A stretch of 64,000 bases of DNA, from positions 41,062-105,061 of IMG/VR virus record IMGVR_UViG_2770939580_000003, one strand, 5' to 3'. The stretch is from a virus. Its lineage: Duplodnaviria > Heunggongvirae > Uroviricota > Caudoviricetes. The translations under genes were made by a program, and so were the position numbers. Positions 5,362 to 52,925 of this stretch are shown in pieces (positions within the stretch are counted from its first letter, which is position 1; every line of letters begins with the position of its first letter). The notes under the pieces were generated by a model. The model searched no databases, was not told where the DNA came from, and saw nothing but the letters and a program-made list of their open reading frames with translations.

Positions 5362-8300
5362 CTATGCATTCTCCTTATTCTTGTACTTGTTATAACCTGT
5401 GATCCAAACATCTGTCTGATCTGTGGCTCTGAAACCGCCATTTCCGTCTGGGACCTGTCTTGGTTTTTTCTTATGGCTCGTTATTTCAATTAAATCTCCT
5501 TTCTCAATTTTCAACGCTTTATCTTTGACGTTAAATGTTTTCTTGTCCATTTTAAAGACACGTTCATCGCCATTACGAAGATTGTATAAGGTAAGCTTGG
5601 GACTGTATTTAAGATCTAAATCGGTAACTACACACCAACCCGATTCTATATCGGGAAATACAGCTTCGGAGTACCCTAGCATTTCTTTTTGGAACATCAC
5701 TTCTTCGTTTGGCATAACTTTGGAGTAGTCATTTTCAGTGCGAATCCTATTTTCTTCATCAATTAGATCCGCTATCCTCTTAAGTTTAGTCTTCTCAACG
5801 TATGTTTTTTTATATTGAGATCTTCCACTTGAGAACTCTTTGTGCAATGTCACCAATAAACTAATGTCACCAAATTCTCTAAAGAACCCAAGACGAGTCA
5901 ATATATCAGTTTGACGACTGTTGACCGATGTTTTTTCGTTTAAATCCACTAGCAATTCAACAAATGATGCATATGTATTTTTACTTAAGGATAATAGTTC
6001 TTCTGCAATCTTTTCATTAAGGTATTTAATAGATTTTAAACCTTTGTAGATAGTATTATCGCCCTCACTAAATGAGTAATCAGCGTTAGACTTTCCAAAT
6101 TTTATTGGTGACACCTCAATACCTCTTGTTTTAGCATAGTTAATTATTTGACCCGTCTTTTCTATGTTGTCATTATTTATATTCAACATCACAGTAAGAA
6201 AGGCTAGAGGGTAGTAGTGTCTTAGATATCCATTTCCATAACCGATGTGAGAGTAAGGATTTGAGTGGTTATCGGAGAATCCATAACGCTGTGCATCATC
6301 TATGACCTGCAAAAAAGGCTCTAAGACAGCAAGCGCATCTTCTTCGGTCTCTCCGTAATCCATATTCATTTTTTGCACAAAACGCTTCCTTATCTCTGGC
6401 AGAAACTTCTCTGTTCCTTCTTTTTTACTCAATCCCCTTCGAACACTATCGCTTTCTGCCATTGTAAACTCGCAGAACTCTACTAGAAAGTTCATGATTT
6501 GTTCTTGATATACTAAGTATCCAATAGTACTCTTCAGAAAATTATTCAATGCTTCATGACCGTGATCTTTGAATATGCCATTTGCCAAAGCTTGTCTGTA
6601 TGAGTCTCCTGATGGTCTAATTGCTCCATTGCCAATTGAGAATAGCTCAATATAACTAAACATATCATTTTGTTCTTCTATCTTATGTATTGTTTCTTCG
6701 CTTAGTAGATCTTTTAGATATGCTTGGGCAGAATTACTTTCCCATTGGAATATTCCCAAACCAGACTCTCGTATGGAATTCCAGACATCTTTATCATCAA
6801 CATCCATATTGTCCGGTGTAAGCCGTTCAATTCCAGCTAGCTTACATGTCTCATTGATAATTTCATTGTTGTCCAAACCCAAAATATCCAACTTTACATA
6901 ATTGAGTCCATCGAGTTCTTTCATATTGATCTGACTTACTGGATACTTACTTTCTTTTGTATAACAAAGACCAATGTTATCTTCGAGACTTACTGGAGAA
7001 ACTATGTAGCCAGAAGGATGAGATCCTATGCTTACTATAACTCCTTGCACCAATTCAACATATTTGAATAATTCGGGATACATATCGAGATACTTCGGAT
7101 CTACTCTATCGACCTTCTTATCGTCTTTGAATACTGATTTAGCAATGGCGTCTACTATCGCAAGATCCATACCTAGAGCCCTTCCAACTTCTCTAATTGC
7201 TCCTTTTAGTGCCACAGTGTTAAAGGTGATAATCTCTGAGAAATGAATACCGGGAATTGTTGCTACGTAATCAATAACATCTTGCCTTTTAGATGGAGGC
7301 CAGTCCAAGTCAATATCGGCAAGCGAGATACGCTCTGGATTCAAGAACCGGAAAAAGTTCAGCTTATGTTTGATACTATCCATCTCAGTAATTTTCAATA
7401 AATACGCAATCAAGCTTCCGTTAACTGATCCACGACCATATCCTTGATAAATATCATTACTATGCGCCCAATCAACTACATCTTTCTGTAGGAGCATATA
7501 GTCAATTGCTCCAACCTTTTTATATGTATCAAACTCTTCTCTAATCCGTTTAAAATATGTATCTTTTTTTACTTTGTCAAACTTATTAATTCCTCGTTCG
7601 ATTACACCGACATTTATCTTTTCTTTAAACACTTTTTCTGAGTCGTCGTGCAGCTTAGGATACTTTGGCGACGAATCAATCTTAAATTCTTCGATCATAT
7701 CAGCCATAACGTTTGTATTATGTATAGCTTCAAGATAAACATTTCTAGGTAAAGCCGATTGCTCCTCAAACATTTTGACAACTTCAGGATATGTTTTAAA
7801 GGTTAGATCGAATGCATCTTCATCTCCATATGTCGCACCCTTAGCCTTCATTAGAATCTTACGTGCATCAGCATGAGATCTGTTTAAGGCGTGAGTGTCT
7901 GTTCCTGCAATAAGCGGTATACCTGTTTCAATTGATAAACTGTGTAGATGCTGGTTGAATAGCTTTTGCTCTGGGTGAGTGTGATATTGAATCTCAAAAA
8001 ACATTCTATGCTTATTGCTAACAAAGAAATCCATAAATTTGTTCATCATCTGCTTGTTGTCATTTTTAATAGCTCTCCATAACGGAGATGCTAGACAAGC
8101 AGATGTCATGATAATATTATCCGAAGTATTGAACAGTTCTTCAAAAGTAATCCTTGGATTATAATAATAATGTCCGTCATCTTTATTGTTCGAGAGTGAA
8201 GTCAGTTTGTTTAATTCCTGCGCTCCCTCAAGATTCTTTGCAATAAGCATGTAATGATAATTGTCGCGAATCAAACCACTTTCTTTGTCATTGTGCTCAG

Positions 8301-8678: not shown

Positions 8679-9701
8679 CTATAAGTTATAGACACCTTCA
8701 ACCTTCTTTGCTTCAGGTAGCTGAGATTCAATATCTCGTGCAGTAATTTCCATTAAGTTTTGACGTGACATCTTCTCGCGTCTCTTCATTAATCGAACCG
8801 CCTGATGTCTGATTGCCTTCTCGATAACATTTCTTACATATCTGGCATTACTAAAATGAATCCTCAGGTCTTTTTCATCTTGTATGATCTGTTTAAGTTT
8901 TAAACCTGCTTCATTTGTAAAGCTATAATCTTTCTCTGAAGACATCTTTAAAGCTATCAGCATTAATTCGTCTGTGGAATAATCATCAAAGTTAATCTGG
9001 ATAGGAAATCTTGAGGGCAATCCGGTATTAATCTGAAGGAAATCGTCCATCTCGATAGGATATCCAGCCAATATGATGATTAGATCGTCACTCTTATCTT
9101 CCATAACTTTTACAAGTGTATCTATAGCCTCTTTACCAAAGTCTTTTTCTCCTCCACGAGCAAGACTATACGCTTCATCAATGAAAAGTATCCCACCCAT
9201 AGCTTTTTTTACAAGGTCACGAGTCTTCAAGGCTGTATGACCAATGTACTCCCCCACTAAATCAGCACGTTCAACCTCAATCAAATGGCCTTTGCTTAGT
9301 ACACCCATTTTGTTGAGCATTTTGGATATTATTCTTGCTACTGTAGTTTTTCCTGTGCCGGGATTACCTTTGAAGATCATATGGTAAACCTGTTTGCTGT
9401 TCTTCAATCCCTCATCGCTTCGGTACTTGTTGATTTGGATTAATGAATAAATCTCATATATCAGATCCTTGACTTTATCAAGCCCAATCATTTCTTCCAT
9501 CTCATTAAAAATGTCTGCTGCGGATTCATTATTGTGATTACTTGTTAATGATATGTCCTCATTTTGCTCTAACGGCGCTCTGAGCCCACCATCAGCGTTG
9601 AATATAATATTGATCCTTGAATCATTAACAGTAATTTTCCTTAAACTTTCGTCCACAGTCATCACCTCGTTAAGACAGTATATGCTCCTGTGTTGGTGCA
9701 A
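8679..9701 (-). CDS. AAA+ ATPase, SpoVK/CbbX-like
   Basis: Walker A GNPGTGKTT, Walker B ILFIDEAYSL, sensor/arginine finger region; about 100-aa N-terminal extension. Confidence 0.75.
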   Translation of the reverse strand: MHQHRSIYCLNEVMTVDESLRKITVNDSRINIIFNADGGLRAPLEQNEDISLTSNHNNESAADIFNEMEEMIGLDKVKDLIYEIYSLIQINKYRSDEGLKNSKQVYHMIFKGNPGTGKTTVARIISKMLNKMGVLSKGHLIEVERADLVGEYIGHTALKTRDLVKKAMGGILFIDEAYSLARGGEKDFGKEAIDTLVKVMEDKSDDLIIILAGYPIEMDDFLQINTGLPSRFPIQINFDDYSTDELMLIALKMSSEKDYSFTNEAGLKLKQIIQDEKDLRIHFSNARYVRNVIEKAIRHQAVRLMKRREKMSRQNLMEITARDIESQLPEAKKVEGVYNL

Positions 9702-9756: not shown

Positions 9757-10029
9757 TTAAAATGAACCAAATAGTTCGTCCAGTTTGTCATCGTATACCT
9801 CTGAACTTTCCATTTGTTCCTCTTCGCTCTGCATGGAAAGTTCCGTATCCTCCTCAAAAGGGAGAGGCAATTCGTTTATGTTAAGGCTTGAACCAGTACC
9901 AAAAAACAATAGTCTCAATGCCCTCCTAACCACATCGCTTTTATCTTCGTGGGGAGGTAATCTTTTCCACGCTTCAATAAGATCCTCATCTTTATTGGGT
10001 CTAAGTCTTGCTCTAGCAGCTATTTCCAT
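9757..10029 (-). CDS. ribbon-helix-helix small protein with acidic tail; candidate ParR/AlfB-like adaptor for the upstream actin-like ATPase
   Basis: N-terminal KDEDLIEAWKRLPPHEDKSDVVRRALRLL (RHH-like), overlaps end of actin-like gene by 10 nt. Confidence 0.4.
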   Translation of the reverse strand: MEIAARARLRPNKDEDLIEAWKRLPPHEDKSDVVRRALRLLFFGTGSSLNINELPLPFEEDTELSMQSEEEQMESSEVYDDKLDELFGSF

Positions 10030-10997
10030 GATTTCTTTCCAATCTTTCCATATCCTCTAACTTGAGCGAGTTGATCCATCAAAATCTTGTTTGGAAGATC
10101 TAAGTATTCAAAAATAAATCGAGCGGCCCCACCAGCGATTAAGTAGATGTCAAAGTTGGTATTCAAACTTTCAATTTCATTTTTGATTTGTCTAGCTAAC
10201 GATTTAAATGCTTTTTGAATTAGTGGAACTATATTGTGTCCAAGGTAATTACCTGAGATAACATAAGTGTCTAATTCGTATATAGCTGGAGTATGCCCAG
10301 TTAGTTTTTGTATGTAAGTTTGTAATAGCGTGTACGCTTTCTCTACCCCCACTAAAACACTTTTGGATTCTTTTAATATACTGGATTTGCTGAATCCTAG
10401 TAAATTCAAAGTGTAAAATCCCAGATCGACAGTTAGTATCTTTTGTTTGGCTGCTTTTACTTTAGCGATTTTGCCATCGTCACCTAATAGATAGTCCATT
10501 GTAACACCTAATCCTTGAGGAACTATCTTGCATTCTTCAATAACAGGCTGGACAGTAATGTTGTTTCCCTTACCTTTACGAATCTTATATTCACCCTGAT
10601 CAGCCAATCCCAAAAGTTTTTGTTCAAATGGAGCTTTTTGTTTAAAGTAAAAGTCAATAGGAAGTCCACTTACTAATTTCACTTTTTCTTTTTTAGCTAA
10701 ATACCCCAGAGTAGTCTTCATGACCACTTCACTTGTCTCAGCCTCGGCTTTATTATTATTGAGAGAGAAGTATTTAACATCACTGTATTCTACGGCAGCA
10801 TTTCCTACGAACAACTCATCGTTGTAAATGAAGTGGTCTGATTTTATATTTTGTTCAAATAAGTCTTTAGCTTCCCCAGCTATAGTTGGTTGACGAAAGA
10901 ACTTTCCTCCTCTCTCACCTTTAGTCCATTTAAATCCAAGGTCTAAATTTAATGTGTTATACAAAATGGTACAACCTCCTTTTGAAGTCATGTACAC
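10020..10997 (-). CDS. actin-like ATPase (ParM/StbA family); true start probably the TTG at 10964 preceded by AAAGGAGG
   Basis: phosphate-1 NLDLGFKWTKGE, phosphate-2 VDLGFYT, adenosine IYLIAGGAARF motifs; RBS AAAGGAGG lies inside the annotated 5' end. Confidence 0.6.
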   Translation of the reverse strand: MYMTSKGGCTILYNTLNLDLGFKWTKGERGGKFFRQPTIAGEAKDLFEQNIKSDHFIYNDELFVGNAAVEYSDVKYFSLNNNKAEAETSEVVMKTTLGYLAKKEKVKLVSGLPIDFYFKQKAPFEQKLLGLADQGEYKIRKGKGNNITVQPVIEECKIVPQGLGVTMDYLLGDDGKIAKVKAAKQKILTVDLGFYTLNLLGFSKSSILKESKSVLVGVEKAYTLLQTYIQKLTGHTPAIYELDTYVISGNYLGHNIVPLIQKAFKSLARQIKNEIESLNTNFDIYLIAGGAARFIFEYLDLPNKILMDQLAQVRGYGKIGKKSWK

Positions 10998-11840: not shown

Positions 11841-12068
11841 CTATTTAACTTTTAAAGGCGTATAACAATCAGAACAAACAATCCATGTACAAGTATCTAG
11901 ACGATTTGAAAACTGATACCATTTAGATGGCACAAACCATTCTTTAGTGGATATGAATCTAGCTATGGCTTCACAGTTACTACAATATAGAGAATCGGTG
12001 TTACTATGTATTCTTGCAGAAGGCTTGTATCCATATATGCCTAAATGCTTCTTTACTTTTTCACTCAT
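11841..12068 (-). CDS. hypothetical zinc-ribbon protein
   Basis: CSNC...CSDC. Confidence 0.45.
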   Translation of the reverse strand: MSEKVKKHLGIYGYKPSARIHSNTDSLYCSNCEAIARFISTKEWFVPSKWYQFSNRLDTCTWIVCSDCYTPLKVK

Positions 12069-12351
12069 GCTGACTCACGATTTTTGCGACACAGTATAGA
12101 TCGCCTTTTCTAAATACATTTGCATATTCCATAGCTTCTGTTTTTGTATCAAATTCATCAATCCTATATCCAGAATCTAACCTATGTTCCCAAAATGAAA
12201 TTACGATCCACTTATAATCTACATTTTCGTCCTCGTCTGACAATCTAATTGTTTTATCAAATTCACCCTGTCTGTAAGCCTCATTGTAGTAAGCTTGTCT
12301 GAGTGATTCCATTTCTTTTGAATAAAATAGCTCTTTAAGTGGTTGATTGTC
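12061..12351 (-). CDS. hypothetical protein (start re-set to MDNQPLK preceded by GGGGAGGGAA)
   Basis: RBS-supported internal start removes most of the overlap with 12335..12631. Confidence 0.4.
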   Translation of the reverse strand, partial: DNQPLKELFYSKEMESLRQAYYNEAYRQGEFDKTIRLSDEDENVDYKWIVISFWEHRLDSGYRIDEFDTKTEAMEYANVFRKGDLYCVAKIVSQHE

Positions 12352-12631
12352 CATTCTCAATTCCCTCCCCAAAATAATCATTAATTGCTTCCTCAATATA
12401 GCTTTTTCCAATATTCAATGAATAGTTAACATTAAAAACGGTTTGATATACTAATGGACATATTTTCTTTTTGATTTTTACATTGTGGCTGTGAATTACT
12501 CCTACTCTTTCGATCCACTCTGAATTATTCTTATAAATGATTTTATATGTAACATTATCACGTTCAATGTATTTAATGACTTTATTTCTGCTCAAAACGC
12601 TCCTCTTTTCTATGTAAAATATAAGTTTCAT
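12335..12631 (-). CDS. hypothetical protein
   Basis: ORF track. Confidence 0.4.
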   Translation of the reverse strand: MKLIFYIEKRSVLSRNKVIKYIERDNVTYKIIYKNNSEWIERVGVIHSHNVKIKKKICPLVYQTVFNVNYSLNIGKSYIEEAINDYFGEGIENGQSTT

Positions 12632-12643
12632 TTAAACTATGTA

Positions 12644-13282
12644 TTAAGAAAATGCTGGAGCCAACTTAGTAATACTACGCTTATATGCCTGATGAACTGC
12701 CTGACGACTCACCTTTAACTCTTTGCCGATATCTGTTAATGCATCGCCCTCAAAAAAGTACTTAAATGAAACAACTTTTTCTTTTTCGGTTAAACTAGAC
12801 TCAATTAAATTAGTTAGTTTATGATTAAACTCATCTTCTTCAACCTTGTCAAAATCGAGATGAGATTCATTTGATAAGACCTCCGCAATAGTCTTTTCAC
12901 TGCTTTGATCTGCTTTCCCAAGAGGTGTATCTAAACTAATCGAATCAAATGAGCCTCGACACTTCATGTGCTTATAGCGTTCAGCTTTCACAAACTCCAT
13001 CCATACAACTCGACCAGCATACGTAACAAACTTAATGTCCTTTGAGGTATCATATGTATCAAATGCAACAATCAAACCGTATAAACCCAAACTTACCAAG
13101 TCATCTAAATCGTCCGTGTACCCAGCTTTTTTCCATTTGTTTGCCAGTTTTACTGCGATACGAATATTATTGTTGATTACCTTATCCTTCAGCTCTTTAC
13201 TGTCAGTTTCTTTTGCTACCAAAATCATTGCCTCATTATCAAAATTCGGGTCATACTGTTGTAGCATCATATTAAAATTCAT
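12644..13282 (-). CDS. sigma-70 family RNA polymerase sigma factor (regions 2 and 4 only), phage-encoded
   Basis: region 2: DLVSLGLYGLIVAFDTYD...FVTYAGRVV; region 4 HTH: LTDIGKELKVSRQAVHQAYKRSITKL. Confidence 0.75.
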   Translation of the reverse strand: MNFNMMLQQYDPNFDNEAMILVAKETDSKELKDKVINNNIRIAVKLANKWKKAGYTDDLDDLVSLGLYGLIVAFDTYDTSKDIKFVTYAGRVVWMEFVKAERYKHMKCRGSFDSISLDTPLGKADQSSEKTIAEVLSNESHLDFDKVEEDEFNHKLTNLIESSLTEKEKVVSFKYFFEGDALTDIGKELKVSRQAVHQAYKRSITKLAPAFS

Positions 13283-13464
13283 TTTCTCTACCTATTGCAT
13301 ATGCAACTCTGGCACATGCCCTTATTATGTATTTGTGTTGACGATAATTTTTGTAAAACGTATAATGTAGTTACAATAGACTAAGGTTTAACCGGGAGCA
13401 GTCATTGCCTTAATTGGAGTGGCTGCTCTTTTTGATGAAGAAAGTGCTTCATTAAGACTATGTA

Positions 13465-14211
13465 TTAACTAAATGTTGGTTCAGGCTTCGCTTCGACCTC
13501 AACACAGTCTGAATCGGACTCAACATCGATAATCAAAGAAGTATAGTTCTGATTCAATTTCATTAGCAAGAGCTCAAAATCGTTTAAGTGTCTAAGAGAC
13601 TTCAAATCCTTTACTTCATGACGCTCAATGTCCCACCCTTTATCTTTACTGTCCTTCCAACGATGCAATCTGATGGATTGGTTCATCTCTTCATCTTTCT
13701 CACATTCAAAAATCAAGTTTGCATATTCGTAAGACCCCCAGTGTCTTTCTTCGCTGTACTCTACCTCTAATGTAACTTCAGCATATTCATAACTAACGCC
13801 ATCATCATAATCAACTTCTAATTTATTCGTATCAATATTCTTACCTACAAAGTCCATCCAATGTTTGTACAGATCTGATACATTTAAATGCTTTACTTTT
13901 TCGTCTGTAGTCATAAGATTCTTGAAATTACTAAGAAGTTGTTTATTCTCAAGTGCTGAGTTTTGGAGTACATCTACCAGTACCGCATCCAATTTAGTTA
14001 TGTATTGTGAATAGTCGTAAGTCTCAAGATAGGGAACCATTACCGATTTAACTTTATCCTCAATGATCTTTGTGACATCGCCGTATGAGCGGAATAGATT
14101 TTCAAGTGCATTTACTACACCTTTCTCCAGTTGTTGTTCAATCAACTTCTCTACAGTTCCATCCTCAAGCTTTCTAGTAATTGTATCTTTAATGCTATTT
14201 TCAAGTGTCAT
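13465..14211 (-). CDS. hypothetical acidic protein (248 aa)
   Basis: ORF track; between sigma factor and GHKL protein. Confidence 0.5.
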   Translation of the reverse strand: MTLENSIKDTITRKLEDGTVEKLIEQQLEKGVVNALENLFRSYGDVTKIIEDKVKSVMVPYLETYDYSQYITKLDAVLVDVLQNSALENKQLLSNFKNLMTTDEKVKHLNVSDLYKHWMDFVGKNIDTNKLEVDYDDGVSYEYAEVTLEVEYSEERHWGSYEYANLIFECEKDEEMNQSIRLHRWKDSKDKGWDIERHEVKDLKSLRHLNDFELLLMKLNQNYTSLIIDVESDSDCVEVEAKPEPTFS

Positions 14212-14254
14212 ATATTATATCTCCCTTTTATTTGAAGTGTTTTATAAAGAATGA

Positions 14255-16084
14255 TTAGGCCATCGCCAAACCGTCAATCAGACAGTCATACAGATCTTTC
14301 GGTCTTTCTACTTCGTCAAAATTCATTAGGTTAACTGCTCGAACAATCTCTTTCAAGTTCCGTAGGAGGAATTTATAGTCGCTTATATCTAGATTCTCTT
14401 CGTTACTTTCCCTAAGTTTACTGTCATCGATTACTGTTCTATCTATGTATACCTTGTTGTTAATGTAGTCATGCACAGCCACAAAGTCTTCTTCAATCTT
14501 TTCAATCGTGTGATTTAACACCTCAATTTGAGTTTGCTTTAGTACCATTACGTCGCCTATAGAGAATACATTTCTGCTGAACCCGATCATTCGACTAATC
14601 ATGTCCAGTAACATTAGGGCTCGGCTCTCTTTTTTACTTAGCTCAGTATTTGAGATAGATGCTTTAATCAACGTGTTCTCAGTTAGTTCTGAGATATGTA
14701 CAATGTTTTGATCCTTGCCCAATGTCTCTAATATTCCGCTTTCTATTTTGTTCCTCGATACAATCACTTTTAATTTGTAATGCTCTGCAATTTTAAATTT
14801 CTTCTCATGTTCGACAATTTGATCAAACGATAACCAAAATACTGGCTCAGAGCTAAAGTCGATCTGTTGTCCTTTTCTTTCTTCGATTTTATCCTCATCA
14901 ATTTCGGGTTCACTTCGTCCACCAGATGATCCTTCACTTCCATACCAAGTAGAAATACCTTCTGCTTCTGGGGCTTTGTTATTAACCTCTTGAGTGAATT
15001 CAATCTCTTTATGATTTGATTCAGATTGTTTGGCTGCTTCTGATTTAATAAAAACCTCATATTGATTGACGCTTCTGATTTCTGGATTCTTTCTTTTAGC
15101 TAAGGCGATGCTATTAAGATATTTCGAATCATCCTTATTCTCAGTATCAAACACTAGGAATGACATCTCATTTTTCAATTTTCCCTTGTCTGCATTCCAT
15201 GAGATAGCATCAATATGCTTCTCAATGTGTCTCTGCTCACCATGTAGAAAACCGTTATTGGCAAGCTCTTTGGTATACCCCGATACTTCCTTTAAGAATG
15301 CAGAGTATTTATCATCTCTAATGATGTCTTTGCGATCTGGAGAGGTTAGATTTAAGGTTTTGTCGTTGATATGTAAATCGCCTTTAACATAATAATAACT
15401 ATCAAGTTTAGTTACCAACCTACCTTTATAAAACACTTTTAGGTCTTGACTGAATCCTGAGTTCAATGCAATCCAACCTTGAATATTGTCTGATTCAATC
15501 ACACTAGAAAACACGCTGCCATCTGTGTCTGTCAAATTCTTTTTTGGTTGAAGTTTATCGTCACAATAGATATCTAATTCATGTATGTATTTTCCTAGCA
15601 ATTCGATTCTTTCACGAATCAATGATGCTGATACTTCCGTAAAGTCAAAATTGTTCAGTATCAATTTGAAACCTTCATATGTATTGTCTGTCTCAGTTAC
15701 TTCTATGTCTGTTTTGTTATTCTGAATCATCACACCAACATTAAAGATAATATGTTTATTCCCCGTAATCACTTCGATGTTGTCGCTCACAGTAATGTTA
15801 CTGAAGAATCCCATCCCAAACGGCGACTCTGATCTTTGAATGTCTTCATCCCACTCTGACTCAGCTATTGAAAATAGAGCTTGTGAATTCGTTAGTGTCT
15901 GACCATTGTTTTCAATTGTGACTTTATTGTTGTAGTAATCTACTGTTACTCTAACTTCGGTTGCTTTGGCTCGTTGGGCGTTCTGAATATCTTCATCAAG
16001 GAACGACAGTTTATCTTTGAAAGTGCTCTGTCTTAACAGTTTCAATTGGTTAATCACGTTAACTTTTACTTGGACATTATTCAA
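14255..16084 (-). CDS. GHKL (histidine-kinase/MutL/Hsp90-like) ATPase domain protein, 609 aa
   Basis: N-box EDIQNAQRAKATEV, G1 ENNGQTL, G2 FGMGFFS near N-terminus. Confidence 0.5.
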   Translation of the reverse strand: MNNVQVKVNVINQLKLLRQSTFKDKLSFLDEDIQNAQRAKATEVRVTVDYYNNKVTIENNGQTLTNSQALFSIAESEWDEDIQRSESPFGMGFFSNITVSDNIEVITGNKHIIFNVGVMIQNNKTDIEVTETDNTYEGFKLILNNFDFTEVSASLIRERIELLGKYIHELDIYCDDKLQPKKNLTDTDGSVFSSVIESDNIQGWIALNSGFSQDLKVFYKGRLVTKLDSYYYVKGDLHINDKTLNLTSPDRKDIIRDDKYSAFLKEVSGYTKELANNGFLHGEQRHIEKHIDAISWNADKGKLKNEMSFLVFDTENKDDSKYLNSIALAKRKNPEIRSVNQYEVFIKSEAAKQSESNHKEIEFTQEVNNKAPEAEGISTWYGSEGSSGGRSEPEIDEDKIEERKGQQIDFSSEPVFWLSFDQIVEHEKKFKIAEHYKLKVIVSRNKIESGILETLGKDQNIVHISELTENTLIKASISNTELSKKESRALMLLDMISRMIGFSRNVFSIGDVMVLKQTQIEVLNHTIEKIEEDFVAVHDYINNKVYIDRTVIDDSKLRESNEENLDISDYKFLLRNLKEIVRAVNLMNFDEVERPKDLYDCLIDGLAMA

Positions 16085-16116
16085 TTTGCCACTCTCTCCT
16101 TTATAAGTTGTTCAAA

Positions 16117-16490
16117 TTAAGATCTGTAGTGCTTCAATAGTTCCTCAACTCTGTTGTGTGAATGTCTGGCTGCTTCATTTCTTGCTAATTTCCAAGTGTC
16201 TTCATCTATATTTTTGTCTCTAAGGTCTTCAACTATTTTATTCATAAGACGTTTAGCATTTTGATTTATGCTTCCATATTCAACGGCGTTTAATGGTATC
16301 GCACTCTGAGTCTTCTCATTGAACCCAGTGCAGATTCTTCTATCATAGACTTCAGTCTGATAGTAGTATTCAAGCCATTTGATAAATGCATATTCGTATC
16401 TCTCTTGATCTGCTGATTTTATGGCTAAAAAATCACTATAATGGTCGATAAATCTTCGCCTCTTTTCTCTTTGAAACAGGTTTTGTCAAG
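16117..16490 (-). pseudogene. about 124-codon open frame with no ATG/GTG/TTG start after an in-frame TGA; possible gene remnant or non-canonical start
   Basis: Manual translation ..RRRFIDHYSDFLAIKSADQERYEYAFIKWLEYYYQ...LLKHYRS*; not in ORF track. Confidence 0.3.
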
Positions 16491-16502
16491 CATTAAGCAC
16501 TC

Positions 16503-16676
16503 TAAATGTGAAAATAGTCGCTTCCTTTATGGAAATTTATCGTCATTCCAACCAAGCCAAACATTTTTACGGATTCGCCATTATTAAATGGAGCACCTTT
16601 GTAATATTCGTCTTTTCTAAAATAAGTGCCACTATCAATCTTCCAATCTTTTATGCATAGATACTTTTGTTTCATA
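16503..16676 (-). CDS. hypothetical 57-aa protein (MKQKYLCIKDWKIDSGTYF...) with GGAGGAG RBS
   Basis: Manual translation; strong RBS 7 nt upstream. Confidence 0.45.
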
Positions 16677-16747
16677 GAGTAGCTCCTCCTTTTTTCTGTC
16701 TATATGAAACAGGTAATTTATCAAAACGCTTTCCTTAGCACATCATA

Positions 16748-16776
16748 GTGACTTTTGTCAAACTTGGTGTTATACT
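16748..16776 (+). promoter_or_regulatory. sigmaA-like promoter (GTGACT -35, 17 nt, TGtTATACT extended -10) for rightward small gene
   Basis: read from sequence. Confidence 0.35.
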
Positions 16777-16808
16777 TTACATACAAAATGATAAGGAGTG
16801 GTTGTTAT

Positions 16809-17006
16809 ATGCCAGCACCGAAACAATTTGTTAACGGCAAATGGGTACATGGTGGAGCAGCTCAACAGCACATTATAAAGAAAAACGGTGGCTGGGATCA
16901 GCATCACGAAGAGCTTATCGAAACAGCCATTAAAGATTTCGCTAAAGAGCAAGTTAGTCAGATGAACGAGAAAGCTAAGAAACCTAGATTAAAACGAGCC
17001 AAATAG
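16809..17006 (+). CDS. small Lys-rich protein (66 aa from MPAPKQF; RBS AAGGAGTG) on opposite strand to surrounding genes; moron-like
   Basis: Own promoter and terminator; opposite orientation. Confidence 0.5.
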   Translation: MPAPKQFVNGKWVHGGAAQQHIIKKNGGWDQHHEELIETAIKDFAKEQVSQMNEKAKKPRLKRAK

Positions 17007-17010
17007 TTTC

Positions 17011-17046
17011 TCTCCCCCCTAGTTGTATTGAGGGGGATTTTCTATA
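17011..17046 (+). terminator. rho-independent terminator CCCCCCT..AGGGGG + ATTTTCT
   Basis: read from sequence. Confidence 0.6.
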
Positions 17047-17095
17047 TAAAACTAGACTTTGATTAACTCTTCTTAAGGATTTCCGTCCATCTAAT

Positions 17096-17344
17096 CTACT
17101 TTCCGTATTTTAGAAGTAACATAAGACACCAGACTACAGGCCATAATAAAGTAACTCCAAGTACATTTTTCCATGTAAATCCTTTTAAATTGCGATCTTT
17201 CCAGATAGCATACAGTAAAGTGAACGTTCCTATGTAAAGATATAATGGGATAATCCAGCCAAATAGTAATGTTAGCAGACTACTCCACCTTCTTTGCTTT
17301 GATTGTAATCTCGAATTCATAATCAGTTTCGTCTTCATCAGCAA
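17096..17344 (-). CDS. small 2-TM membrane protein
   Basis: hydrophobic segments; start uncertain. Confidence 0.4.
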   Translation of the reverse strand: MLMKTKLIMNSRLQSKQRRWSSLLTLLFGWIIPLYLYIGTFTLLYAIWKDRNLKGFTWKNVLGVTLLWPVVWCLMLLLKYGK

Positions 17345-17522
17345 TACCTTCTAACAGGTCATTGGGGTAGACCATAAATCTTCCTTTGGTGAATCTGGCT
17401 TTTTCATGGCTCTTTGGTTTCCTTCCTGTGATAATAGCGTAGTCTTCTTTGCTCACATCCCAAACAAATGATTCATAATCTCCACTTGGCTTACCTTTAA
17501 ACGTAAATGTTTTTTCTTTCAT
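17280..17522 (-). CDS. hypothetical protein
   Basis: ORF track. Confidence 0.45.
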   Translation of the reverse strand: MKEKTFTFKGKPSGDYESFVWDVSKEDYAIITGRKPKSHEKARFTKGRFMVYPNDLLEGIADEDETDYEFEITIKAKKVE

Positions 17523-17524
17523 CT

Positions 17525-17956
17525 TTAGACCTCCAATAATTCAGGATTATCATGTATGTTTCCTATCTTATGTGGCATCCATTCAATGTCATAACCAGTC
17601 CAACCACCATTACCCGCATTAGCTAAATACATACTTAATGGCACTGCCTTATATTTTGATTGGTTTATGTCATAGCATATGACTTTTGCTTCGCGTTCCT
17701 TGATTGCCCAATTGGGAGAGAGGATGTCTCCCTCAAATAAATCTTCATTACTCACAACATCCGCCCTCCCAATACTTTTGCCTACTGTTAAAGGATCAAC
17801 CTTGTACCAATATTCAGTACAGAAATATTGTTCATCCCATTCAACAATGTCTCCAACAATCGCATCGTCACCGATTAAGTACCCGCAGATCCATTCCCCT
17901 GTTTCAATGTGTTTACCACGATGTTTATTGTTTGTCATCAATACATCCTCCTTCAA
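17525..17956 (-). CDS. YopX family protein
   Basis: C-terminal ...LFEGDIL...IGNIHDNPELLE signature of YopX family. Confidence 0.7.
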   Translation of the reverse strand: MKEDVLMTNNKHRGKHIETGEWICGYLIGDDAIVGDIVEWDEQYFCTEYWYKVDPLTVGKSIGRADVVSNEDLFEGDILSPNWAIKEREAKVICYDINQSKYKAVPLSMYLANAGNGGWTGYDIEWMPHKIGNIHDNPELLEV

Positions 17957-31544: not shown

Positions 31545-32429
31545 TTATTTTACCCCTTCTGTCTTGGTTGTTGGCAGTTGAATCATTGGAGTATTTGAAC
31601 CACTTACATATGGAAGTGCTCCATCCCATTTCTTAATTGTCTCGTATTGAACGAGTTGATTAGAGAGTGATTGCTGAAGCTCATTATTTGCTTTAGCTTG
31701 ACCCTCCGCCTCGATTAAGAGTTTGTCTGCATTACCTTGTGCTTCTACTCGTTTGCGGTCTGCTTCTTTCTTGGCAATCTCTAGCTCAGTAGTCTTACGC
31801 TCTAGTTCCTGAGAAGCTTCGACTCGCTTATCAATTGCTTCCTGAGTCTTAGCATCTGGTTGAGGAACACCTACGGTTACGTTTGATACGATAAAGCCCA
31901 GTTCTTTAACGTCATCAGCGAAACGTTGTTGAACATCTACTCCTGCTTCAGATGACTTCTCACCATAAACATCAATTACAGTAAACTTAGAAATACCTTT
32001 ACGAGCTGCGTCACGGAAACGTGTTTTCAGATATGTATCCTCAATTTCTTGAATACCAATTGGCCCAAATGTATTAAAAATAGATGATACCTTGCTTGGC
32101 TCTACTTGATAGTTATAGGCAAAATCGATTGTGATGTTTTTACCGTCAGACGTAGCAATTTGAATATCTTTGTATTCAACGGTTTGAATTCGAATAGGAT
32201 ACTTTGTTACTTTGTCAAAAGCTCCAACCAATTTCCATCCTTGGCTGAGAGTACTATCCTTTACTCCTCCATTTGGTGAATATACGACACCAACATATCC
32301 ATTGGGAATTCTTGTTACAAAGAAACTCAATAGCGCTACTCCCAGAATAATTACCAATCCAACTGCAATTGCCCCTACTTTAAATGTCTTTAGTTTCTTC
32401 ATTTGCATTCTCCTCTTGTTTAAATTCAT
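31545..32429 (-). CDS. SPFH/band-7 (prohibitin/stomatin/HflC-like) membrane protein
   Basis: N-terminal TM, band-7 core, Ala/Glu-rich coiled-coil C-terminus. Confidence 0.75.
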   Translation of the reverse strand: MNLNKRRMQMKKLKTFKVGAIAVGLVIILGVALLSFFVTRIPNGYVGVVYSPNGGVKDSTLSQGWKLVGAFDKVTKYPIRIQTVEYKDIQIATSDGKNITIDFAYNYQVEPSKVSSIFNTFGPIGIQEIEDTYLKTRFRDAARKGISKFTVIDVYGEKSSEAGVDVQQRFADDVKELGFIVSNVTVGVPQPDAKTQEAIDKRVEASQELERKTTELEIAKKEADRKRVEAQGNADKLLIEAEGQAKANNELQQSLSNQLVQYETIKKWDGALPYVSGSNTPMIQLPTTKTEGVK

Positions 32430-33273: not shown

Positions 33274-34050
33274 TTATAAACTTTCAATTCGCTTATTAGC
33301 TATTTCTATGTATTTTTCTTCTGTTTCAAATCCAATAAATGCTCTATTATTCTTTAAAGCTGCCACTGCAGTCGTTCCGCTTCCCATGCAATTATCTAGA
33401 ACAACTTCGCCCTCATTTGAATAGGTTTTAATCAAGTATTCAAACAGTGCTACAGGTTTTTGTGTGGGATGCAAAGCTTCTTTTTGCTTATCGGTAGCAA
33501 ACACCTGAACGCTCCTTGGATATCTTTCAGTGCTACCACCGCCACTAATGCCAATTTTAGTCTTGCCGTAATTACTTCCGTCCTCTTGATGCTTAGTGTA
33601 GGAGTGTACCGGAGTATGTCCTGTTGTTTTCTGAGGATTGTATGTAGGAAGATTCTTGTAGAACACTAGTACATTTTCATGGGCCTTCATAGGCATTTTC
33701 TTGGCATTTAAATGTCCAGTAGCAGTTGTTTTCTCCCAAATCCATTCATACTTGAGCATCTTTAAATTGCTGCAGCCAAGGATCTTATCAAATGGTGTTT
33801 GTGCGGTCAGTACAATAGCTCCGTTGTCTTTTATGATTCTGCAGTATTGTTCCCATAAGAGTTCCAAATTGATAATGGAGTCCCATTTGTTCTGTGTAGT
33901 ACCGTAAGGCAAATCACAAAGGATCATGTCAATTGACTTTTCAGGTAAGAGAGCCATACCTTCAAGACAATCCATTTGGTAAATTCTATTAAGCTCAATA
34001 CTACCTAATAGTTCTTTGTTCAAATAATCATCCTTCCTTTTTTTCATCAA
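33274..34050 (-). CDS. DNA methyltransferase (N4/N6 amino-methyltransferase, beta class), orphan
   Basis: motif IV-like CDLPYG then motif I DNCMGSGTTAVAA; no nuclease partner nearby. Confidence 0.65.
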   Translation of the reverse strand: MMKKRKDDYLNKELLGSIELNRIYQMDCLEGMALLPEKSIDMILCDLPYGTTQNKWDSIINLELLWEQYCRIIKDNGAIVLTAQTPFDKILGCSNLKMLKYEWIWEKTTATGHLNAKKMPMKAHENVLVFYKNLPTYNPQKTTGHTPVHSYTKHQEDGSNYGKTKIGISGGGSTERYPRSVQVFATDKQKEALHPTQKPVALFEYLIKTYSNEGEVVLDNCMGSGTTAVAALKNNRAFIGFETEEKYIEIANKRIESL

Positions 34051-43183: not shown

Positions 43184-43843
43184 CTATAAGAAGTCTGAAA
43201 TATCATTACTGTTTGTCTTTTTAGGAGTGTAAGATATCTCTTCAATAATCGTAACTTCTTTGTTTAGCTTTTGCTCTTGAACTTGTCTTTCTCTATTTCT
43301 ACGTCTTACAAATGCTTCGTTTAATTTACCAATCATTATGCTTATACAGTAATTTATTGATTTAACATCATTTGAACCGTCTAGTTTGTTCTTTAAGCTA
43401 TTTCTAATCGTAAGTTCTGATAGGACATAGGCATCTAACATAAGTGAGAAATCTGGGCCAGTTCTCCACTTTCTAATTCTTTCTCCATTTTTAGTTTCGA
43501 ATCCAGCCCTCAAATCTTTAAGCCTAGTAATATTTGATTTCGGGATTACAGTTAAATCATGAAGTTTTTCTATGTATTTGCATAATACATCCCAATTTTC
43601 ATTTTCAATTTTGGTGTCTTCTACTTTCTTTTGAAACAAAGTAGCACATTTCTTATGAACTTTATTTTTCTTACTGTATGTTTCACCTTTCTTGCGTATT
43701 TTTTTACCATCAGGATCAAATTTATCTTTTGCATATTTATGTTGTGTTTCCACTATAGTCATACTATCATCTAACATTGAGAATTCATTGCAATATTTGC
43801 ACTTAACTGGTCTAGCCAGTTTAATCACCTCCTTAGAATACAA
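43184..43843 (-). CDS. hypothetical zinc-finger protein
   Basis: CKYC near N-terminus. Confidence 0.5.
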   Translation of the reverse strand: MYSKEVIKLARPVKCKYCNEFSMLDDSMTIVETQHKYAKDKFDPDGKKIRKKGETYSKKNKVHKKCATLFQKKVEDTKIENENWDVLCKYIEKLHDLTVIPKSNITRLKDLRAGFETKNGERIRKWRTGPDFSLMLDAYVLSELTIRNSLKNKLDGSNDVKSINYCISIMIGKLNEAFVRRRNRERQVQEQKLNKEVTIIEEISYTPKKTNSNDISDFL

Positions 43844-44669
43844 AACTTTCGAACTCAGGTAATCTTAGCAAGTTGTTTTTGGTGTATCCTCGGTGTTTAA
43901 CTACACACTTAATGACAGGATCAATGTAAACTGTATCCTCTGTCTCTTTCTTTTTAAGTTGCTGGAATACTCTATATCCCGCTTTTCTCTCGTTTGTACC
44001 AACAGCTAAACTCATTACTCCTACTATTCGTTTACCATCAGATAAAAGCCATCCAAATTCATTTTTCTTGTATCCAGCAATGTAGTATTCGCCTACCTCA
44101 TACGCAATTACCTTCAACCATTTATCAGATCGCTTATCAACTTCATATTTTGAGCTGATATCCTTCAAAACTACTCCTTCAAGTTTTTGCTGCTTAGCGA
44201 GGTTGAAGTACTTAATTCCATTTCCTCTTATATAGATCGATTTCGCATAGTAATCATTGTTTACGAAGGCATTAGATAGTATTTCTTTGCGCTCTATAAG
44301 AGGTTTGGAAATCACACTTTCACCTTCAAAGTTGATGATATCGAAAGCACAGAATGCAACCCTATGCTTACTCTTCTTTGCCATGAACCGTTCCATGACA
44401 AATTCAAAGTTCGGCTTACCATCTGAATCAGTAACGATCAGTTCTCCATCAAGCGTTGTTCCTTTTTGAATTGGTATGTTTTCAACCAACTCAGGGAACT
44501 TGGCAGTAACATCATTGTTATGTCTTGTGTAGACTTTTACCTTATCCCTGTAATCGATGATAAGGCGTATGCCATCGAGTTTAAGCTCTGTTAAGTGCAA
44601 ATCACTATCGAATGGCAAGTTGTTTGGTGCTTTGTATAGTAACATTGGAGAAGTAAACATATTAATCAC
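43833..44669 (-). CDS. ATP-dependent DNA ligase (minimal, 278 aa)
   Basis: motif I ELKLDGIRL (KxDG), adenylation-domain layout. Confidence 0.8.
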   Translation of the reverse strand: MINMFTSPMLLYKAPNNLPFDSDLHLTELKLDGIRLIIDYRDKVKVYTRHNNDVTAKFPELVENIPIQKGTTLDGELIVTDSDGKPNFEFVMERFMAKKSKHRVAFCAFDIINFEGESVISKPLIERKEILSNAFVNNDYYAKSIYIRGNGIKYFNLAKQQKLEGVVLKDISSKYEVDKRSDKWLKVIAYEVGEYYIAGYKKNEFGWLLSDGKRIVGVMSLAVGTNERKAGYRVFQQLKKKETEDTVYIDPVIKCVVKHRGYTKNNLLRLPEFESFVF

Positions 44670-51198: not shown

Positions 51199-51529
51199 TG
51201 ATTTTTACAGAAACCAAGTCATCAAAATTGAGAAGTTCATAGCCTGTTTCTGTTTCCAATTTTATTCTCTTTCCCGAAGCACTAACGGACGCTACTATAC
51301 CCTTAATTATCCTATTACCATACTCATTAAAAATTTCAATGTCTGTCTCCAAAGTATAACTTAACGACATACGCAAGTTAAGAGAAATAATCTCAACTTC
51401 GTCTTCGTGTAAAGTTGGTCTTGTTGTAACATTATCCTTGGATCGATGCTCAATAATTCTTTCTTTATGTTGTGGCAACATCATGCGACTTGATTCCCAT
51501 AGTCCATTTGCTTGCAATTTTTTACTCAT
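51164..51529 (-). CDS. yolD: YolD-like protein (accessory to Y-family polymerase)
   Basis: about 120 aa, immediately downstream of and overlapping uvrX as in SPbeta uvrX-yolD. Confidence 0.55.
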   Translation of the reverse strand: MSKKLQANGLWESSRMMLPQHKERIIEHRSKDNVTTRPTLHEDEVEIISLNLRMSLSYTLETDIEIFNEYGNRIIKGIVASVSASGKRIKLETETGYELLNFDDLVSVKIIEGGDPFETDA

Positions 51530-52767
51530 CTGTAGTGTCCTCCAATTTTATTTGATCTGTCTATGGCTTGACCAGCAGAGGTAATAGAACTTGCTCTGAG
51601 TATAGCTATATCTCCATAACGATCTTTGATATCATCCATTACTTTATCTATGGCTCTCTTCTGTTCTTGATCATCAAATAATGACATTTGATATGTCTCA
51701 GCATTAGAAAGATTGGACAATGATATCCCCACTCGTCTCACAGGTTGACCATCCCAATGTTGCCGAAAGATCTGTTTAGCTATCTTACATACATCTACGG
51801 TTATATTAGTGGGATCTGGCAATTTGACCTGTCTGCTAAATCCAGTTGGATGATCAAAGTCTGCACCCGATAAACTCATAGTAACTACGCTGCCCATCAA
51901 TCCCTTTTTCCGCGCGCGTCTGCAAACTTCCGTACATATATCTTGTATTAAAACATCGATCTCCCACTGTTCTGTATAGTCTCTAGGGAGCGTCATGCCA
52001 TTGCCAATATCCTTTTGCACACTATGGGTATTTATGGTTACAGGAGAGTCATCAAGTCCATTTGCCACTCTCCAAATAACCTCACCATTTACACCCCATT
52101 TGCTTCTCAGTTTTGACAGTGGAGTATTCGCAAGTTGTTTTATTGTACGAACTCCCATTTTCCACAAATGTTTTTCCATTCTCGATCCAATACCCCACAT
52201 GTCACGAATTGGCTTATCTCCTATGTGCTGATGAAGTTCTTCTTTTCTAAGAAAGAATACTCCACCTTCTATTTTCTTCGCGATCATATCGCAGCAAAGT
52301 TTACTCATCACTTTGTTGGTCGAGATACCAGCTCTCGCATATACACCCGTTTCATTGTAAATCTTATCTTGAATTTGTCTTGCTAAATCAATTGGGTCAT
52401 TACCGAAAAGATGTAGAGATCCGGTCACATCACAAAACAGCTCATCGATGCTATAAGGCTCAACTAAATCGGTAAACTCCTCAATAATGCTCATAATTTG
52501 AGTCGAAACCTCTATATATTCTTGCATATGTGGTCTCACAATGATCAACTCAGGACACTTTTGAAGTGATTGCCATAATGGTTCAGCGGTTGACACACCT
52601 TTTGCTTTAGCTAGAGGACATGCAGCAAGTATTATTCCCGAACGTCTTGCTGGATCTCCTGCAACCGCCAATGGTTTGTTTTTGTACTGTGGCATTTTAG
52701 CCTTTTCAACACTGGCGTAAAACGACTGCATGTCAATTAACATAATTGTCCGTTCTTTCTTCGCCAT
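51526..52767 (-). CDS. uvrX: Y-family (UmuC/DinB-like) translesion DNA polymerase; start set at MAKKERTIMLIDMQSFYASVE (RBS GGGAGTGA)
   Basis: LIDMQSFYASVE motif (DMDxFFAxVE of Y-family), little-finger C-terminus. Confidence 0.85.
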   Translation of the reverse strand: MAKKERTIMLIDMQSFYASVEKAKMPQYKNKPLAVAGDPARRSGIILAACPLAKAKGVSTAEPLWQSLQKCPELIIVRPHMQEYIEVSTQIMSIIEEFTDLVEPYSIDELFCDVTGSLHLFGNDPIDLARQIQDKIYNETGVYARAGISTNKVMSKLCCDMIAKKIEGGVFFLRKEELHQHIGDKPIRDMWGIGSRMEKHLWKMGVRTIKQLANTPLSKLRSKWGVNGEVIWRVANGLDDSPVTINTHSVQKDIGNGMTLPRDYTEQWEIDVLIQDICTEVCRRARKKGLMGSVVTMSLSGADFDHPTGFSRQVKLPDPTNITVDVCKIAKQIFRQHWDGQPVRRVGISLSNLSNAETYQMSLFDDQEQKRAIDKVMDDIKDRYGDIAILRASSITSAGQAIDRSNKIGGHYR

Positions 52768-52790
52768 TACTATCACTCCCATAATTAAAT

Positions 52791-52836
52791 AAGAACGTCT
52801 GTTTGTATATGTATTATACACCGAACAGACGTTCTT
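52791..52836 (-). promoter_or_regulatory. two Cheo/LexA (SOS) boxes (GAACGTCTGTTC and AAACAGACGTTC on minus strand) flanking an extended -10 TGTATAAT of the uvrX promoter
   Basis: 15-bp inverted repeat AAGAACGTCTGTTTG / CGAACAGACGTTCTT; matches B. subtilis LexA consensus CGAAC-N4-GTTCG. Confidence 0.6.
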
Positions 52837-52925
52837 TATGCAACAGGAAATTTTTGTAGTTCGATTAAACATTAAATTGTATAATACAAAAGGTATTCTA
52901 TTTCACATAACAAGGGAGAGTTAAA

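Follow-up and report, generated by a model that had tools for sequence, protein, structure and literature searches.

What does a large GHKL-type protein do in the early region of a temperate phage, and does it act together with the genes that lie beside it? The question is raised by a 64,000-nucleotide (nt) stretch of the IMG/VR virus record IMGVR_UViG_2770939580_000003 (positions 41,062 to 105,061), called here the window, in which an open reading frame (ORF) for a 609-amino-acid (aa) protein with GHKL motifs is followed by genes for an acidic 248-aa protein and for a 212-aa sigma-70 family factor. GHKL ATPases are the engines of topoisomerases, chaperones, mismatch repair, chromatin compaction and kinases. 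An earlier note, made from the sequence alone, had read the three ORFs, all of which we find on the minus strand, as a possible functional unit with an anti-sigma-like, takeover or anti-defence role. Our analysis gives a different picture, in which the 609-aa protein is encoded by a solitary gene and belongs to an unnamed family that joins a GHKL domain to a zincin-like domain. The lineage of the window has lost the peptidase motif of this family and, later, part of its nucleotide-binding motif.

The 609-aa protein is acidic (isoelectric point (pI) 5.0), starts at a TTG codon behind a strong AAGGAGAGAG ribosome-binding site and consists of four parts (Table 1). Its N-terminal part has the Bergerat alpha/beta sandwich fold: Pfam HATPase_c_3 matches residues 31-121 (expectation value (E) 1.2e-5, 25.8 bits against a cutoff of 25), and the NCBIfam sacsin-type domain for binding of adenosine triphosphate (ATP) matches at E 2.7e-7, under its cutoff. 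The GHKL core is followed by a second domain that aligns with transducer/middle domains, which places the protein in the GHL subclass. The closest folds are those of Hsp90, sacsin, MORC and MutL, with alignments that extend through the transducer/middle domain over 250-370 residues; 367 aa align to full-length TRAP1, and Hsp90-family proteins outscore MutL and MORC.

Two of the three Bergerat boxes assigned by the earlier note stand as described, whereas its 'G1' box, ENNGQTL, is degenerate. The N-box E31..N35 (motif I, ExxxN) and the G2 box FGMGFFS (motif III, F89-G90-M-G92-F-F-S95) show no variation in 41 close homologues with 48-92% identity to the window protein; E31 and N35 are likewise invariant among 37 distant homologues, and G90 and G92 are so family-wide. 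Residues G61, P249, D250 and R251, as well as the strap N9..D24, are also invariant among the 41. Column identity falls from 0.85 in the strap and 0.77 in the core to 0.52 in the tail that once carried HExxH, so that the N-terminus is the best conserved region of the protein and the former HExxH tail the least conserved. Motif II departs from the canonical DxGxG and reads N59-N60-G61-Q62-T63, with Asn59 in place of the Asp and Thr63 in place of the second Gly. By spacing and family alignment N59 lies at the position of the adenine-contacting Asp, which is D58 in Escherichia coli MutL and D79 in yeast Hsp90. An Asp-to-Asn change at this position, as in yeast Hsp90 D79N, abolishes ATP binding in those proteins. 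Binding and hydrolysis of ATP by the window protein are doubtful because of this substitution; since the other pocket residues and the strap are strongly conserved, however, the N-terminal domain does not appear to be simply dead. In the transducer-like part, P249-D-R251-K252 is a candidate for the gamma-phosphate-sensing basic residue.

The earlier note had seen no recognisable domain in the roughly 450 aa that follow the GHKL core. This holds for Pfam and PHROGs, which recognise none there, but structure and family alignment resolve the region into transducer-like, linker and zincin-like parts. PHROGs gave no match for the whole protein either, and among 37 relatives only phrog_6203, of unknown function, was matched, by seven of them. 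When the PDB was searched with the family profile, TRAP1 alone was returned, at E ~1 and over the G2 box. PADLOC returned a marginal TmtA match only (E 0.002), and no known defence-system model fits.

What the C-terminal domain is becomes apparent from the wider family. An exhaustive profile search gave 1,659 clusters at 50% identity with E <= 1e-3, 735 of them with E <= 1e-10, and the full-length matches are mostly of 560-700 aa. In an alignment of 36 divergent representatives, whose identity with the window protein is 18-43%, E31, Q34, N35, R38, G61, G90, G92, G138, F139 and G235 are invariant and P-D-R-K at residues 249-252 is near-invariant. Most striking is that the wider family carries a canonical motif II, D[DN]GxG, and a C-terminus with HExxH followed by (T)xDNTxxH. 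In 24 such canonical C-terminal domains the H, E and H of the motif, an Asp 7 residues on and a His 12 residues on are all invariant, a pattern that identifies, at the level of motifs, a zincin-type metal site. A few canonical members match Pfam Peptidase_M78 (IrrE/ImmA) or SprT-like marginally. The C-terminal domain of the window protein is homologous to the canonical ones (99.7% probability, E 3.7e-26), with IAHELAH aligned to IVRAVNL, and its predicted structure has zincins as top matches and Wss1 and Spartan among its matches; neither the HExxH nor the third zinc ligand is present, and the domain holds no metal ligands. A PDB sequence search with the HExxH-domain profile returned snake-venom metalloproteinases only, at E ~0.5.

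Our data thus define a large, unnamed and apparently phage-borne family built of GHKL, transducer-like, disordered linker and zincin-like domains, in which most members have a canonical ATP site (ExxxN, DxGxG, FGxGFxS) together with the C-terminal HExxH motif. In phages, no combination of a GHKL domain with a metallopeptidase is described in the literature that we searched, and tblastn with a canonical relative (P0216) against phage records gave no match. Canonical relatives lie between a lysis amidase and PolA, RepO and DnaC on a 72 kb viral contig (L041, where the protein has 573 aa, 5995..7716) and downstream of a UvrD helicase in a locus of 58% GC (L043). A third locus (L042) encodes the protein as two adjacent ORFs, one for the GHKL and transducer half (5998..6888, 296 aa, with canonical DDGCGC) and one for the C-terminal half (6970..7755, 261 aa, HELSH..TKDYT); behind them come an ORF with a phosphoribosyltransferase domain and, next, a DNA ligase. 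Since the halves are encoded separately there, the arrangement suggests that they may be able to work as separate polypeptides. The canonical relatives resemble the small zincins, namely minigluzincins, Wss1/SprT, M48/HtpX and the M78 proteins ImmA/IrrE, in their invariant H-E-x-x-H, which in the relatives is accompanied by Asp at +7 and His at +12. A fusion of a zincin to a GHKL ATPase was likewise not found described in the literature searched. The 'TxD' that follows HExxH in the relatives presumably recalls the GTxD motif of aspzincins, a likeness that we treat as a lead only.

The state of the window protein is derived and shared by its whole clade. All 120 close homologues listed have motif II in the form N[ND]Gxx and lack HExxH, whereas a census by regular expressions in 125 representatives of the wider family found D[DN]GxG in 91 and a C-terminal HExxH in 82. 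DxGxG and HExxH are associated (2x2 table 74, 17, 4, 24; Fisher p 1.7e-10, with phylogeny ignored). The order of the losses was taken from a quick neighbour-joining tree with Fitch parsimony, in which HExxH disappears once, where a 45-tip clade branches off, and the Asp is lost later, also once, in a nested 31-tip clade that includes the lineage of the window; further motif changes are scattered over single tips. The peptidase motif was therefore lost first, while the ATP site was canonical, and motif II was altered afterwards. A repeated, coupled loss of DxGxG and HExxH was considered and dropped, as the tree gives one sequential loss of each plus scattered single tips.

A word-indexed search gave 209 homologues of the 609-aa protein. 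Among the 120 matches listed, 94-100% of the query is covered, nearly all proteins are of 604-626 aa, and identity ranges from 96% in Paenibacillus to ~49% in Clostridium tagluense and C. botulinum; a genome scan adds loci of Lachnospiraceae and Aminipila, also at ~49% identity. Only 9 of 185,579 species-representative genomes match the two peptide patterns of that scan, whereas 35 loci come from IMG/VR, the majority on viral contigs of 120-218 kb, and the clade is hence rare in reference genomes and widespread in metagenomes. The surmise of the earlier note that such a gene is not a standard feature of the SPbeta group agrees with a tblastn search of the 609-aa protein against 50,697 phage records, in which nothing was found at E <= 1e-5. 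The gene is always set among DNA-metabolism and early genes, with varying neighbours: between primase and RecJ with DnaB also in the context (L006), after DNA polymerase III (PolIII) and ERCC4 (L005), or, in the window and in L007, between ribonucleotide reductase (RNR)/ThyX and an actin-like protein (ALP)/PolIII. An all-against-all BLAST of the flanking ORFs found no conserved partner. The 609-aa ORF is, in short, a solitary and vertically conserved gene of the early/replication region of 120-200 kb SPbeta-like temperate phages of Paenibacillus and Clostridia.

The same sample bears on the proposed trio. It comprises 50 loci with a 609-aa homologue, drawn from assemblies, IMG/VR viral contigs and GTDB species genomes, with flanks of 4-8 kb searched, so that absences of the sigma gene refer to these flanks. 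Of these 50, only 4 have a sigma homologue downstream of the GHKL gene (L010, L011, L012 and L055), all of them Paenibacillus elements, and none was found in the downstream flank of 42 of the 46 loci having at least 1.5 kb of downstream sequence. It is absent from the flanks of comparably close relatives (L032 and L056, 87% identity; L007 and L013, 72%) and of every clostridial or metagenomic locus, and Pfam found no sigma domain in the ORFs of 171-212 aa that lie downstream of the GHKL gene in relatives. The 248-aa gene stands beside the GHKL gene in one locus of the 50, L055 (Paenibacillus illinoisensis E3), where an extra 227-aa ORF separates it from the sigma gene; in L010, L011 and L012 the GHKL gene and the sigma gene directly behind it are 37-186 nt apart. 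With none, one or two genes across the loci, the slot between GHKL and sigma genes is variable. The ~60 nt after the stop codon of the 248-aa gene in the window (…CACTT…CTCCAATTAAGG) resemble the sequence after the GHKL stop in L010 and L011, a pattern such as an insertion would leave. Near homologues of the 248-aa gene in Bacillus phages B83 and Deep-Purple and in herellevirus P59, the three loci inspected, there is no GHKL gene. The sigma and 248-aa genes are thus not syntenic with the GHKL gene, and the 248-aa protein also occurs in phages in which no such gene lies close by, so that the three do not form a module. The 248-aa gene, a mobile accessory ORF, and the sigma gene are independent neighbours of the GHKL gene. 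Lack of synteny in related phages had been named beforehand as the finding that would overturn the idea of a unit. The reading as a GHKL-acidic-sigma module, attractive as it was, proved wrong: that the genes adjoin in one genome was misleading.

How, then, might the protein work? The explanation that we favour, and hold tentatively, is that the window protein is a nucleotide-gated, clamp-like pseudo-protease that binds its target instead of cutting it, the canonical relatives being ATP-gated metallopeptidases. In canonical members, ATP-driven dimerisation of the N-terminal domain, as in other GHL ATPases, would be coupled to the C-terminal zincin peptidase, which would act on a protein substrate early in infection. 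In the clade of the window, the strap-mediated, clamp-like closing and dimerisation would be kept, and the use of nucleotide would be weakened or altered, as Asn can serve as hydrogen-bond donor as well as acceptor; the zincin domain, now devoid of its catalytic motif, would bind or sequester the target with no cleavage. The clade keeps, under strong conservation, the catalytic Glu, the Mg-binding Asn, the glycine lid, the strap and PDRK. Our data show the fold class, the four-part architecture, the states of the motifs, the order in which they were lost and the absence of conserved partners; the peptidase activity of the relatives, the clamp mechanism, the binding without cleavage and everything that concerns the target we infer. 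A bolder version, rather unlikely in our estimation, would have phages of several bacterial phyla carry an undescribed dimerising ATPase of the Hsp90/MutL type that gates a zincin protease against a host or DNA-bound protein, with the lineage of the window as a pseudoenzyme whose pocket reads another nucleotide or none and which traps the same target.

Several observations weigh against the clamp-like pseudo-protease. The Asp-to-Asn substitution could end nucleotide binding altogether, in which case the idea of a clamp fails, an objection that is weakened by the strong conservation of the other ATP-site residues. The constant location in the replication module suits a DNA-directed role at least as well, and the acidic pI favours neither a protein-directed nor a DNA-directed role strongly. 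Moreover, the single-tip 'losses' in the motif census may be artefacts.

The main alternative is a DNA-directed, MutL/MORC-like ATP-gated clamp belonging to a replication or repair module, in which the canonical zincin would strip DNA-bound proteins in the manner of Wss1/Spartan and the clade of the window would keep the clamp role only. Such a role is possible, if unlikely. The layout is MutL-like, in that a disordered linker joins an N-terminal ATPase domain (~350 aa) to a C-terminal one (~200 aa) which in the relatives bears a metal motif; Wss1 and Spartan are among the matches of the C-terminal domain, one canonical member matches Pfam SprT-like, and in six genome contexts the gene lies beside UvrD, PolA, ligase, primase, RecJ or PolIII. 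Yet in early phage regions genes for replication stand side by side with takeover genes unrelated to it, which makes location weak evidence, and Pfam detected no DNA-binding, nuclease, MutL_C or DNA_mis_repair domain in the window protein or its relatives. The 609-aa protein also differs from MutL, MORC and SMCHD1 in having no CW or coiled-coil domains, and the metal motif of the relatives is HExxH, that of zincins, and not the endonuclease motif of MutL; both the acidic pI and the higher scores of the Hsp90 family speak against the DNA-directed clamp. To a further alternative, an Hsp90/sacsin-type phage chaperone assisting the folding or assembly of phage proteins, we give a slim chance. The Hsp90 family (HtpG, TRAP1, GRP94) and the sacsin SR domain are among the closest known systems, the G2 box is Hsp90-like (FG(V/M)GF(Y/F)S), length and acidic pI are akin to those of HtpG, a PDB profile search matches TRAP1 only, at the G2 box, the sacsin-type NCBIfam domain is matched and the best BFVD match is a giant-virus Hsp90. 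Membership at the sequence level is lacking, however: neither the window protein nor 37 relatives match Pfam HSP90 (PF00183), and the PDB sequence match is at E ~1. The linker is placed behind the middle domain, the C-terminal part has its homologue in the HExxH domain and not in the dimerisation domain of Hsp90, and the Asn of motif II corresponds to the substitution D79N, which abolishes ATP binding in yeast Hsp90.

Another phage protein with a similar outline is T4 rIIA, which consists of an N-terminal GHKL domain and a variable C-terminus (PMC7824862). As a distant counterpart of rIIA in phages of Firmicutes, the window protein would keep resident prophages or defence systems from excluding the infecting phage, which we regard as improbable. 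Both are early proteins, rIIA being of 600-900 aa; Foldseek against BFVD returns many RIIA-like proteins (E 1e-12 to 1e-9, several of 618-653 aa), and hhalign compares the family with an alignment of 10 rIIA sequences at 94% probability and E 1e-7. That alignment was built from phage records, as a homologue search with T4 rIIA gave only near-identical T-even sequences. The hhalign match is confined to the GHKL core (columns 16-178), so that the likeness ends at about residue 180, and the distinct C-terminal domain is conserved family-wide; the Foldseek template-modelling scores are only ~0.3, no PHROG rIIA family was matched by the window protein or by 37 family members, and BLASTP against T4 rIIA is not significant (E 1.4). 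Nor is there a conserved downstream partner, whereas rIIB or its N4 counterpart gp34 directly follows rIIA in 6 of the 7 loci that reach past it. Least probable is an anti-sigma or sigma-regulatory GHKL protein, an analogue of SpoIIAB that would bind or phosphorylate a partner to control the adjacent sigma factor. The Bergerat fold is shared, and a sigma gene is nearby in a few genomes, directly downstream or, in the window and L055, one or two genes away. The protein is nevertheless four times larger than SpoIIAB-type kinases and belongs to the transducer-bearing Hsp90/MORC/MutL class instead of the 145-aa kinase type, and the adenine-binding Asp that a kinase requires is absent. It is not the small HATPase_c-only protein, encoded with a sigma factor or an antagonist, that characterises such systems; the sigma neighbour is unconserved, and accessory genes are inserted between the two. 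The anti-sigma-kinase idea of the earlier note accordingly fits the fold poorly; its looser suggestion of a takeover, anti-defence or DNA-targeting role may or may not hold.

What is of interest here is the GHKL-zincin family, with its more than 1,600 clusters and its location in early/replication regions of phages that use different replication systems, and the degenerate variant found in the window; the sigma factor is of a known type, and the 248-aa gene is an ordinary accessory ORF. If the canonical members were ATP-gated proteases, they would make up a novel class of enzymes for phage takeover or anti-defence, and the clade of the window would be a natural separation-of-function variant, useful for isolating the role of the ATPase.

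Table 1. Features in the window, with their coordinates (residues are those of the 609-aa protein; pLDDT, predicted local distance difference test)
Feature	Position	Strand	Evidence or remark
SpoVK-like AAA+ protein	8679..9701	-	TIGR02881, E 1.5e-122, 407.7 bits against equivalog cutoff 422.95
Actin-like segregation protein and overlapping acidic 90-aa ORF	9757..10997	-	ALP_N and MreB-like_C; phrog_691 'partition protein'
212-aa sigma-70 family factor, regions 2 and 4, SigK/SigE-like	12644..13282	-	Pfam, phrog_351, NCBIfam, PDB sigma factors
GHKL-sigma interval, variable accessory slot	window 13283..14254; L010 7831..8000; L055 5831..7475		1, 0 and 2 genes respectively
Acidic 248-aa protein, PHROG 2600, function unknown, accessory gene	13465..14211	-	phrog_2600, E 1.2e-57
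609-aa GHKL / transducer / linker / zincin-like protein	14255..16084 (including stop codon)	-	ORF; the part that is conserved across loci
Residues 403-609, alpha/beta C-terminal domain	14258..14878	-	homologous to the HExxH domain of relatives; zinc-site motif gone
Residues 353-402, predicted disordered, weakly conserved linker	14879..15028	-	pLDDT <50; column identity 0.54
Residues 151-352, transducer-like beta sheet, then helical region	15029..15634	-	near-invariant P249-D-R-K in the sheet
Residues 1-150, N-terminal strap and Bergerat (GHKL) core	15635..16084	-	motif I E31..N35; motif II N59-N60-G61-Q-T63, degenerate; motif III F89-G-M-G-F-F-S95
Open frame of ~125 codons directly upstream of the GHKL gene	16117..16490	-	…RFIDHYSDFLAIKSADQERYEYAFIKWLEYYYQTEVYDRR…HYRS*
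SPFH/flotillin-like protein	31545..32429	-	
N6/N4 DNA methylase	33274..34050	-	
ATP-dependent DNA ligase	43833..44669	-	
Y-family (ImpB/UmuC-type) polymerase	51526..52872	-	

Both neighbours agree with their description in the earlier note as an acidic protein and a two-domain sigma factor. The 248-aa protein has a pI of 4.64, and its phrog_2600 match is near full-length (residues 1-240 against profile positions 4-234 of 236). Its homologues occur in the small Bacillus siphophages B83 and Deep-Purple, in herellevirus P59 and in Ruminococcus phages, and a PDB sequence search with it gave nothing significant. The sigma ORF scores 26.8 bits for Sigma70_r2 (cutoff 24), 23.2 bits for Sigma70_r4 (cutoff 24.1) and 59 bits for TIGR02937 (cutoff 42.9), with phrog_351 at E 7e-31 and SigK/SigE-like NCBIfam matches. 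It belongs to the sporulation-type sigma factors already described from phages (bioRxiv 10.1101/2021.11.12.468384).

The host element is, by its gene content, a phage with an SPbeta-like set of replication genes. Throughout the window transcription runs leftward and GC content is ~35%; besides the features of Table 1 it encodes the PolIII alpha subunit, RusA, a large serine recombinase, an amidase, thymidylate synthase, ribonucleotide reductase, RecJ, a DnaB-like helicase and a primase-like protein. Positions 12000..17000 have no match at the DNA level in phage and plasmid collections, the PolIII protein is at most 57% identical to PolIII of Bacillus siphophages of ~160 kb, and the closest GHKL homologue, at 96% identity, lies in a Paenibacillus genome. 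On these three grounds the element is an undescribed large temperate phage or prophage of Paenibacillus. A YorH-family domain is present in one of its relatives.

A few observations concern other genes of these elements. The AAA+ protein falls just under the equivalog cutoff for stage V sporulation protein K and is 91% identical to its counterpart in L010; it is the second sporulation-type gene of the phage, beside that of the SigK/SigE-like sigma factor. The actin-like protein and its overlapping 90-aa ORF are kept together beside PolIII in L007, L010, L011, L013 and L032 and resemble a ParM/ParR-type pair; the element also has a serine integrase. In the Paenibacillus donghaensis prophage L007 the PolIII alpha gene is seemingly interrupted (13644..17833), with a 314-aa ORF lacking a Pfam match between a 406-aa piece (PHP and DNA_pol3_alpha) and a 675-aa piece (finger domain); an intron, an intein or a homing element might account for the interruption. 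In the Clostridium botulinum elements L008 and L009, a cluster (13467..17074) for salvage of nicotinamide adenine dinucleotide (NAD) lies a few kb downstream of the GHKL gene and comprises an isochorismatase-like nicotinamidase, NAPRTase and NAD synthase, and L004 has a comparable set plus a gene like that for phosphoribosyl-pyrophosphate (PRPP) synthetase. By analogy, the clostridial cluster is reminiscent of phage systems that counter NAD depletion. In the open frame directly upstream of the GHKL gene in the window, no ATG, GTG or TTG occurs ahead of the final 42 codons. The homologous ORF of L010 (5108..5467, 119 aa) has an ATG start, and an additional 178-aa gene stands before the GHKL gene in that locus; the frame in the window may have a non-canonical start or be a decaying gene.

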